A stretch of DNA of 60,401 nucleotides, taken from positions 1-60,401 of the forward strand of contig NJBH01000024.1 in NCBI GenBank assembly GCA_005223125.1. Reading direction: 5' to 3'. Source of the stretch: Promethearchaeota archaeon Loki_b32 (GTDB lineage Archaea > Asgardarchaeota > Lokiarchaeia > Sigyniarchaeales > SOKP01). Under the pieces are notes generated by a model. The model searched no databases and was not told where the DNA came from. It was given only the letters and a program-made list of their open reading frames with translations. Every line of letters starts with the position of its first letter. Within the stretch, counting starts at the first letter, position 1. Made by a program: the position numbers and the translations under genes. Of this stretch, positions 10,977 through 34,615 are shown in pieces.

Positions 10977-12243
10977 ATGGATGACATGAAAAATTTGCGT
11001 AAACAATGGCAAGCCGTATTTTCCTGTATAGATTTTAGATATATCATCTAAAACGCAGAAGGGATGCGGCGATTGTGGGTATGCTATTAGACCTGCAGTT
11101 GGAAGATACTTAACATGTCCTGTATTGGAAGCTAAAGGAGATGAAGGATTTGAAATATATTTTTCAAGAGGACGTATGAATGTTTTAAAGAGTATTTTAG
11201 AAGGCCAAATCCCATTGAGTAAAGAACTCGCAGAATGGGTATATCAATGTTCTGAATGTGGAAATTGCACTGAAGTTTGTCATATGTCTCAGAATCCAAA
11301 TATTGTTCTCCCCACGTGTAATTGGATAGATCATGTGAAAGTATGGGAAGCATTAAGAAAAGATTTGGTTGAAGCTGGTTTTGCTCCACTTGATAGACAT
11401 AGTAATCTAATTGAATATATGGATAATGATAAAATTAAAAATCCATATGGAGAGGAGAGAAATAAAAAATTAGAATGGATAGAAGAATTTCCTGAAATTA
11501 AGGATCGGGGTGAATTCATGTTTTTCGGTGGCTGTACCATGCCTTTAAGACAAGTAGATACTCTAAGAAGTATGATGAAGATTTTAAAAGTCGCAGGTAA
11601 AGAAATCGCAATGACCAAAGAAGAATGGTGCTGTGGGTCTATTGCATTACGTATTGGTGATGAAAAATCTTTAATTGACATTGTTAAGCATAATATTACA
11701 GAATTTGAAAAAAAAGGTACTAAAACATTGTTTACAGCATGTGCTGGATGTTATAGAACTTGGAAGAAAGATTATCCTGAATTATTAGGTGAAGAATTAC
11801 CATTTGAAGTAAAACATATTACAGAAATATTAGTAGATTTACTTAATAATAACCAAATCCCTTTTAAAGAGAAAGAACAAGAAGAAGTAAAAGTAACTTA
11901 CCATGATCCTTGCCATCTAGGACGGCATATGGACCTTTATGATATCCCTCGTGAAATAATTTCTAAAATTCCAGGAATTAATCTAATAGAAATGAAAAGA
12001 ACTAAGAACAATGCTTGGTGTTGCGGAGCAGGTGGTGGAGTAAAGAGTCAATTTCCAGATTTAGCGCTCAAAATCTCAGAAGAACGAATAAAAGAAGCAA
12101 TTGAAACCGGTGCTCAAATATTGACGACAAGTTGTCCATTTTGTATAGGGAATCTGGGGGATGCATATGAGGAAATAGATGCTTCTATTAAAGACAAAAT
12201 CAAGGTTGTTGATATAATTGATCTTATTGCTTCTAAACTATAG
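10977..12243 (+). CDS. Fe-S oxidoreductase (GlpC/HdrD-like: two 4Fe-4S motifs plus two CCG domains), interrupted by a 31-nt intron at 11030-11060
   Basis: CSECGNCTEVC, WCCG, TACAGC, YHDPCHLGR, WCCGAGGG, TSCPFC. The first ferredoxin motif (CMGCGDC...CP) forms only after removing 31 nt. Confidence 0.85.
11030..11060 (+). other. Putative BHB intron in mRNA (31 nt)
   Basis: Central helix CUGU/GCAG, 3-nt bulges AUA and AAG, inner stem UUUUAGAU/AUCUAAAA, outer stem GCCGUA/UGCGGC. Excision restores the frame. Confidence 0.8.
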
Positions 12244-27312: not shown

Positions 27313-27445
27313 GGCTCGGTACGGGAATTGTCCCGAAAAGAATAAGTTTCTTTCCGTTTGAACCCGTCTTTCCCCAGTAGTAAGAATTTTCTTACTCTTC
27401 TAGGGATTCACAGTCCCCAATACTAACCACTATACAAACCGAGCC
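27313..27445 (-). tRNA. tRNA-His(GUG) with encoded G-1 and two non-canonical 30-nt BHB introns (27370-27399 in the variable loop, 27328-27357 in the T-loop)
   Basis: Acceptor GCTCGGT/ACCGAGC. Anticodon arm GGGGA-CTGTGAA-TCCCT. Spliced T-arm ACGGG-TTCAATT-CCCGT. CCA not encoded. Confidence 0.92.
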
Positions 27446-33136: not shown

Positions 33137-33961
33137 TTATAGACCTTTGGGACCCTGTTTATAAATTTCAAAAGCTTCATCTACTGAGGCATCCTCATGA
33201 ACGATAGCTCTTACAGCTTTAATCATGCCTAATGGGCTGTCACTTTGAAAGATATTTCGCCCCATATCAACGCCAACAGCACCATTCGCGATAGCATTCT
33301 TTGACATTTGTAATGCCTCTTTTTCTCTAATTTTCTTACCTCCTGCGATCACAACTGGCACTGGACAAATACTAGTTACCTCTTCAAAGTTCTCACAATA
33401 ATAGGTTTTTACGAAAGTAGCCCCCAATTCTGCAGCCATCCTACTCGCCATCCCTAAATACCGTGCATCTCTGACCATCTCTCTTCCAACTGCAGTGACC
33501 GCTAGAACTGGCACTCCGTAAGTTTGCCCAAAATTCACGAGTTTGGAGAGATTCATTAAAGTTTGCTTCTCATACTCACCGCCAACAAAAATAGAACAGG
33601 TAATAGCAGAAACATTTAATCTTATCGCATCCTCAATAGAAACATTAATTTCTTCATTTGAGAGTTCCTTAAGCATACTTGCACCAGCAGAAACTCTTAA
33701 GACAATTGGTACATCCAGTTCTGAAGGCACACAGTTTCTAAGCATTCCACGTGTAAGCATTAAAGCGTCAGCATATTCAAATAATGGGCTCATATCACTG
33801 AAACATTTTAATTGACCCGGAATATTTCCAAAATATCCATGATCAATAGCCAACATAACACATCGTCCAGATTTGGGCTTAATAATTCTATTTAATCTAT
33901 TTAATCGATCTGCTTAAATAATTAATCTGTTTTGAAAGCCCCAATCACCTACTACAACCAC
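33137..33961 (-). CDS. lsrF: LsrF-like class I aldolase/thiolase, interrupted by a 30-nt insertion/intron (33892-33921)
   Basis: GTG start after GAAGGTG. DWGFQNRL[...]NRIIKPKSGRCVMLAIDHGYF, ELGATFVKTYY, VIAGG, DMGRNIFQ. Confidence 0.85.
33892..33921 (-). other. Putative relaxed BHB intron in mRNA (30 nt, contains an in-frame UAA)
   Basis: Inner stem UAUUUAA/UUAAAUA, central helix GAUU/GAUU with two GU pairs, bulges AAU and AAA. Excision gives NRLNRII. Confidence 0.6.
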
Positions 33962-34078: not shown

Positions 34079-34615
34079 TTAAATAACACTTAAGAATTCT
34101 TCAACTCTATTCTTTATTTTTGAAACGATCTTTTTTGAAATGTTTCGCCTTATAAGCTCTTTAATCAAATTCAAATGATAATTACTAATCTTGTGCATTG
34201 TAATCAACTCCGTAAACATTTTCTTGTATATCATCAAAGATTCTTCAAGTTCGTCAACTCTTCTTTTTGGTGTAGGAAAATGATACTCATACGCTTTATA
34301 TTCTTCCTCATACCACCCAGCACCTAGCTACAATAAAGCTCGACCATTAGAAATATTATCCAATGTTGATATCATTTTAGCCAAATAAGTAGGATTACGG
34401 AAAGAGTTACAGAGAACAATATGGCCTAATTTTACTTTTTGTGTTTCCGTCGCTAAAGTAGCTAAGAGCATAACAGATTCCAGATAAGTTTCTTTTTTAT
34501 CTCTTGTTGCATCAAAACCAATTAAATGATCATTTACATGAACAGAATCGAATCCTAATTTTTCTACGCGTAATGTTAAATCTCTAATATCTGGATAATT
34601 CAACGGACTTCTCAT
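34079..34615 (-). pseudogene. Truncated LLM-class flavin/F420 oxidoreductase fused to the C-terminus of an unrelated gene; in-frame TAG at 34328-34330
   Basis: GFDSVHVNDH, RNPTYLAKM, GRALL*LGAGWYEEEY. The tail KISNYHLNLIKE...EFLSVI matches the end of 37079-37927. Confidence 0.85.

Follow-up and report, generated by a model that had tools for sequence, protein, structure and literature searches.

The lsrF-like gene of a Lokiarchaeia genome is interrupted near its 5' end by 30 nt that are most probably an mRNA intron, predicted to be spliced by EndA and RtcB at a relaxed BHL motif. We lean slightly towards this intron being young, i.e., a tRNA-Ala hairpin that recently moved in, with a duplication at a self-complementary 4-mer, and that is spreading between Lokiarchaeia lineages. 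The insert, its stop codon, the restored frame, the BHL geometry, the enzymes, the class-wide covariation, the likeness to a tRNA intron and the tract shared between carriers were all read from sequence.

The interrupted lsrF gene and its carriers

The window (the whole 60,401-nt stretch analyzed) is contig C32 of a 4.13-Mb genome of 29.9% GC, and the closest relatives of its lsrF are labelled Promethearchaeota/Lokiarchaeota. The gene scores above the cut-off of NCBIfam PRK08227, an LsrF-type thiolase/aldolase, and its intact ortholog matches E. coli LsrF (3GKF) at E=1.6e-88. Since the genome yielded just one further match, a paralog of 31% identity, the interrupted lsrF is the single ortholog. 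The gene is read on the minus strand from a GTG start codon at 33961 (Table 1). An earlier note had reported an insert with an in-frame TAA near this end and had proposed that excision by the BHB rule restores the gene; both claims held, as removal of the insert leaves 795 nt encoding 264 aa with zero internal stops and an N-terminus identical to that of the orthologs. Its remark that the insert lies within the first ~20 codons, as in the Fe-S gene, does not extend to the class: other inserts were found at codons 25-365 and ~222, which lends no support to a 5'-end bias.

Table 1. Coordinates of the interrupted lsrF gene, its predicted intron and two further intron-bearing genes in the window
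Feature	Position	Strand	Remarks
lsrF exon 1	33922..33961	-	GTG start, 13 codons + 1 nt; matches intronless orthologs
lsrF exon 2	33137..33891	-	Gene callers detect only a 239-aa ORF from Met26 (33856)
Predicted BHB/BHL intron, 30 nt	33892..33921	-	In-frame TAA at 33916-33914
Central-helix exon strand GAUU	33924..33927	-	5' bulge 33923-33921; predicted cut 33922/33921
Central-helix intron strand GAUU	33894..33897	-	3' bulge/loop 33893-33891; predicted cut 33892/33891
Intron hairpin core	33898..33920	-	Sequence comparison with tRNA-Ala(CGC) 32/33 introns
7-nt direct repeat, copy 1	33922..33928	-	End of exon 1
7-nt direct repeat, copy 2	33892..33898	-	Intron end; target-site-duplication-like, provides helix strand and bulge
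6-bp exon-exon helix, 5' strand	33936..33941	-	Could close the BHL loop
6-bp exon-exon helix, 3' strand	33875..33880	-	Pairs with 33936..33941
Fe-S/CCG gene intron, 31-nt canonical BHB	11030..11060	+	Site also occupied in G007 and G002, by diverged versions
tRNA-His(GTG), two 30-nt introns	27313..27445	-	ARAGORN detects the gene only after both are removed

An assembly artefact, or the footprint of a multi-copy mobile element, would fit the 7-nt direct repeat and the AT-rich, repeat-like context, but is largely refuted and keeps a vanishingly small probability: i) The best-matching run, probably the source sample, has a Logan contig that crosses the insert without a single difference, and a contig from a second study contains the insert with 2 differences in 343 nt, extending only 6 nt past it; ii) An exact search of JGI metagenomes, able to return identical copies only, located these 30 nt at the corresponding position of two further alleles, L091 (present in four assembly records) and L092, whose CDS differ from the host-genome lsrF CDS at a dS of ~0.85-1.4; as the insert is identical in two diverged alleles, assembly error is excluded; iii) The insert is single-copy rather than multi-copy like an IS or MITE: the host genome holds no other copy at up to 4-6 mismatches, viral contigs hold no exact match, and no transposase-like ORF was seen nearby; iv) A 3-mismatch search with the intron core across 135 genomes returned 13 places besides lsrF versus 8 control matches, near the control level except for a tRNA intron described below.

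A flanking-pattern search found no further carriers among the other 134 of the 135 family genomes, and ~50 distinct full-length lsrF alleles are without the insert. Three truncated 239-aa homologues were considered as carriers and rejected (Ns, or alternative starts). All copies found at this site are identical, the only kind that the exact-match search could return, and so they show no covariation. Next to lsrF, an F420-dependent LLM oxidoreductase (34080-34615, minus strand) is a pseudogene with an in-frame TAG after codon 95 followed by a truncation, and its tail continues into sequence resembling the 3' terminus of the 37079-37927 gene. A scan for bacterial promoters and terminators gave chance-level results.

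Splice motif, splicing enzymes and related inserts

The intron is laid out as 1 nt, a 7-bp arm, a 9-nt loop, the second 7-bp arm, a 4-nt helix strand and AA. At the register given in the earlier note, the relaxed BHB described there (7-bp inner stem, GAUU/GAUU helix, weak outer helix) holds geometrically: the central helix forms 4/4 pairs (G-U, A-U, U-A and U-G), with two 3-nt bulges and the 7-bp inner stem. The outer helix has only 1 bp (0 in L092), so that the motif lies outside the strict hBHBh' definition and is a relaxed HBh'/BHL; the possible 6-bp exon-exon helix of Table 1 is more distal. The 7-nt direct repeat reported earlier is real and permits 8 equivalent excision registers (1-4 for other introns), with the full central helix in one of the eight. 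Among shuffled inserts, a 4/4 helix with a stem of at least 7 bp arose in 0.05% of trials; given the 7-nt duplication and the lsrF core, the BHB was also formed at 8-12% of random coding sites.

The central helix is the weakest of the compared intron set. The MFE structure is a shifted 12-bp hairpin, not the BHB fold, the pair probability of the BHB helix is ~0, and at 37 C the BHB fold exceeds the ensemble energy by 3.1-4.7 kcal/mol, towards the weak end of the range of 0.2-5.9 seen for other introns of the class but within it. Because the shifted hairpin competes with the BHB fold, splicing may be inefficient.

The host genome encodes two EndA paralogs, in the regions of C18:184510 and C2:78506, and RtcB. 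EndA alpha, whose best match is A. pernix EndA, has retained the Tyr-His-Lys triad as well as the Lys-bearing crenarchaeal loop, while the other paralog lacks the His of the triad. By these residues the host EndA is of the (alpha-beta)2 broad-specificity type, predicted to cleave relaxed motifs; cleavage of such motifs has been reported for (alpha-beta)2 EndA with the crenarchaeal loop (PMC6379350). Under the proposed mechanism, the lsrF pre-mRNA would be transcribed and would fold into the less stable relaxed BHL, possibly aided by enzyme binding; (alpha-beta)2 EndA would cut after the second base of each bulge, and RtcB would ligate the exons, yielding full-length LsrF.

The reading of the insert as an mRNA intron, put forward in the earlier note, gains support from the identical inserts in diverged alleles and from covarying BHB inserts elsewhere in lsrF, and further from BHB inserts in single-copy genes and the predicted broad specificity of EndA. 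In lsrF itself, G050 carries a BHB insert at codon 32 with the identical 1+7+9+7+4+2 layout, and nine alleles carry BHB inserts of 30-32 nt at codon 222, frameshifting in most, in frames that are otherwise open. Across seven aligned 32-nt introns of the codon-222 site, 98% of cells pair and 6 pairs are changed on both sides; this level was reached by 0-1 of 500 shuffles, and slid controls were also lower; as the sequences are related, the shuffle count is not a probability. Covariation preserving the BHB motif was likewise found at the Fe-S/CCG site of the window. L168 has a possible fourth lsrF insert (30 nt, at nt ~593) with a poor BHB score at its automatic placement. In the host genome the length distribution of tRNA introns peaks at 30 nt.

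A census free of any motif requirement compared 1454 host-genome loci (some of them spurious ORFs) with 2.4 Mb sampled from three relatives. Five of the eight disrupting inserts of 25-40 nt were canonical BHB (0.3-0.6 expected) and two more were relaxed, while in-frame inserts showed no enrichment (1/24, with 0.6-0.8 expected). Single-copy uL11 and cdhD were among the hosts, together with an EF-2 paralog and a Rab-like GTPase. In particular, the only uL11 gene of the genome carries a 28-nt, frameshifting, canonical BHB insert (G000 C57:12438-12465, plus strand). Further inserts of G000 that bring in a stop or a frameshift lie at C45:47178, C3:75804, C63:17590, C36:188607, C24:174991 and C60:2422; they are BHB-shaped, and their hosts are cdhD, the EF-2 paralog, the Rab-like GTPase, two unknown genes and an acyl-CoA dehydrogenase. 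Moreover psmA (C4) has a BHB-shaped insert whose removal restores the frame, as found in a motif check, and gyrB (C56) is interrupted. The count of at least 7 disrupting BHB inserts per 1454 loci, plus those of lsrF, the Fe-S gene, psmA and gyrB, extrapolates to ~20 or more per genome. Interruption of the single-copy uL11 makes mRNA splicing in this host very likely and thus raises the prior for the lsrF insert.

In G023, BHB inserts were observed in an EF-2 gene (C1 ~1,382,056; 30 nt, stop) and in a small Zn-finger gene (C1 ~1,097,298; 32 nt, frameshift). A de novo BHB scan that used no homology proved uninformative (22,181 candidates, flat length distribution) and was set aside.

In T4 gene 60, ribosomes hop from one matched codon to another, and in lsrF the direct repeat does flank the in-frame 30-nt hairpin with matching Arg-Leu codons. 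Translational bypass of the stop-containing hairpin nevertheless has next to no probability, because the stop lies two codons past the possible take-off codon rather than directly after it, because other inserts of the class are without matched codons and many are frameshifting, and because covariation in the class sits in exon-intron helices.

Selection, lateral movement and origin of the hairpin

The dN/dS of the host lsrF allele versus its relatives is ~0.04, and between L091 and L092, the other two carriers, 10 codons differ synonymously and 1 nonsynonymously (p=2e-6). By these ratios lsrF is under strong purifying selection, so that a null allele in two non-sister lineages would be unexpected. 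The gene is, however, a recombination mosaic, so that the low dN/dS, also that between L091 and L092, may have arisen before the insert came in. Amino-acid changes are slightly in excess on the branch of the host genome (5:2, 8:4), an excess inseparable from mosaicism.

These observations bear on the explanation that the insert is a mis-landed intron copy, not or hardly spliced, which leaves a null gene or a short LsrF re-initiated at Met26 and drifts by recombination. We regard it as improbable: the dN/dS, the conservation of residues 6-25 out to E. coli LsrF and the second intron of L091 lsrF, which is clearly BHB-shaped, frameshifting and still intact, all speak against it, even though the BHB fold is not the MFE structure, the 239-aa ORF from Met26 still exceeds the family cut-off and has a weak purine-rich motif ~8-12 nt upstream, the adjoining LLM oxidoreductase is a plain pseudogene and recombination obscures the selection signal.

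Over nt 121-420 the lsrF CDS is almost the same as L308, and over nt 481-792 almost the same as L302. Compared with L302, L308 and L035, the gene (33137-33961) is pieced together from tracts of 100-300 nt that closely match different relatives, and its 5' UTR is 93% identical to that of G050, from which the CDS is far removed. To judge by these tracts, the patchwork arose as species recombined frequently over short tracts. The tree rejects monophyly of the carriers (AU p=0.0007): they are non-sister over nt 61-792, yet have 59 identical nt in common around and including the intron, and at nt 45, 48 and 54 L091 and L092 match the host genome rather than the intronless sister G022. A tract shared by otherwise non-sister alleles suggests that the intron moves laterally in short tracts; given the mosaic gene, what the apparent non-monophyly of the carriers shows is that the 5' tract has moved laterally, not that the intron homes. 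The 30-nt intron is too short to encode a homing endonuclease, and none was found adjacent to lsrF, the LAGLIDADG matches of the genome being on other contigs. Downstream of, and convergent with, an lsrF bearing the codon-222 intron lies a 268-aa ORF (L036:2-805, plus strand; G068), which is LAGLIDADG-like by eye and has no Pfam match at E 0.001.

A candidate source of the hairpin emerged from the 3-mismatch search, two matches of which fell in register on the 30-nt 32/33 intron of tRNA-Ala(CGC). An exon-based search collected 27 members of this intron family, including the host's own (C61:34668-34697). The lsrF intron is identical at 24/30 positions to the G023 and G058 members, with the same length and register; over the core, identity is 20/23 to both and 16/23 to the host's own copy, and 20/23 is within the variation of the family (nearest-neighbour range 15-22, median pair 16). 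The 9-bp stem of the G023 and G058 introns is kept with one mismatch, the loop matches that of G023 at 7/9 nt, and three of the six differences fall in the final 6 nt, the stretch that has to pair with the exon of the new host gene.

For random hairpins of the same layout, the per-family probability of reaching 20/23 is 3e-5 to 2e-4; as a post hoc finding, the donor link has p ~0.01 once ~100 intron families are corrected for. With a PSSM of the family, the lsrF intron ranked 10th of 8.3 million positions and 1st of 927 BHB-shaped 30-mers; with the three closest members left out, it ranked 479th and still 1st respectively. The lsrF/tRNA-Ala pair was narrowly the best (22 vs 20) of 234 mRNA-by-tRNA intron pairs (host tRNAs only), and against the tRNA-Ala family the lsrF intron scored 34, with none of 29 other introns exceeding 19. 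Such likeness points to tRNA-to-mRNA intron transfer from the tRNA-Ala(CGC) 32/33 family as the probable origin. As a general donor for mRNA introns the family was rejected, since no other mRNA intron matches it. The tRNA-Ala 32/33 intron is itself patchy: it is absent in G016 and G061 (L351, L366), with matches to the intron pattern in about half of the genus.

On the other hand, there is a local signal: intron nt 16-24 directly repeat the exon sequence that spans the junction, of which the 5' arm is the reverse complement (p=0.005 taken singly, ~0.08 over 16 introns). As a general origin local duplication was rejected, being seen in 1/16 introns only, that of lsrF. The copy of the target junction in the 3' arm could reflect microhomology guiding insertion, or else a birth that was local altogether. 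The latter, with splicing thereafter, is an unlikely origin, and one compatible with a spliced intron. Still less likely, to the point of being far-fetched, is that slippage and fold-back at the junction (a tandem plus an inverted copy) produced an inactivating lesion with an accidental BHB and a chance likeness to the tRNA intron: the junction copy in both arms and the eight equivalent registers would suit such an event, which leaves unexplained the match of the loop to the G023 tRNA-Ala intron, the class-typical 30-nt length and the identical copy in other lineages.

For a transferred intron, the proposed course is that the hairpin would have been copied from the tRNA-Ala(CGC) 32/33 intron, with a 7-nt match between the 3' arm of the donor and the target junction perhaps guiding insertion. 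Insertion would duplicate 6-7 target bases, the duplicate becoming the 3' strand of the splice helix. Because GAUU self-pairs via two G-U wobbles, the duplicate would rebuild the central helix, and the copy would be splicable from the start. The copied intron would then spread between lineages via short-tract homologous recombination. The alternative offered in the earlier note, that the repeat is a duplication footprint, is probably also true, as the mark of the arrival of the intron.

Relation to known introns and significance

The nearest known system is the BHB intron in the cbf5 pre-mRNA of Crenarchaeota (Watanabe 2002; Yoshinari 2006; Yokobori 2009, PMC2738675). Like the cbf5 introns (16-44 nt), that of lsrF is short, lies within the coding sequence, has a relaxed motif, as is often so in cbf5, and occurs in a host with hetero-oligomeric EndA. 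It differs in its Asgard host, in residing in a metabolic gene with several independent sites, in being recent and patchy and in having an apparent tRNA donor; furthermore, splicing has been demonstrated for cbf5 and is predicted from sequence for lsrF. One account names cbf5 as the only earlier archaeal mRNA case and adds a Haloferax 5' UTR (PMC7714728). The literature searched (subscription papers being outside its scope) yielded no Asgard coding-sequence BHB introns, cbf5 being the one case it gave of an intron of this type within an archaeal coding sequence.

Non-canonical tRNA introns of Asgard archaea (10.64898/2026.10.13.758758; PMC11291895) resemble the lsrF intron in size range, BHB boundaries, recent gains and the presence of two EndA paralogs; those studies concern tRNA genes only, unlike the present case. 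One of them found almost no copying between Asgard tRNA types and names the route of intron arrival as the central open problem (bioRxiv 10.64898/2026.10.13.758758). For Thermoproteales, similar tRNA introns at unrelated sites are interpreted, in the account of Fujishima 2010 given in PMC4090602, as DNA-level transposition limited by BHB compatibility. The movement described in that account is tRNA-to-tRNA and large-scale, whereas lsrF presents one candidate tRNA-to-mRNA case in which the last 6-7 nt would have been replaced by target sequence. Rogers and Bendich 2025 (PMC11782384) read direct repeats at intron borders as insertion footprints, their survey including 4 archaeal introns (tRNA, rRNA); in contrast to the introns of that survey, the direct repeat of the lsrF intron is itself the splice helix.

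Since gene callers truncate or split genes that bear such inserts, core genes such as uL11 are mis-annotated. The lsrF intron bears on how BHB introns arrive, as it joins a candidate donor and apparent lateral spread to a target duplication that also serves as the splice helix. If this really is a tRNA intron that recently moved into a protein-coding gene, it would provide a concrete route of BHB intron gain and would mean that tRNA-type splicing of mRNAs is ongoing, and genome-wide, in the closest archaeal relatives of eukaryotes.
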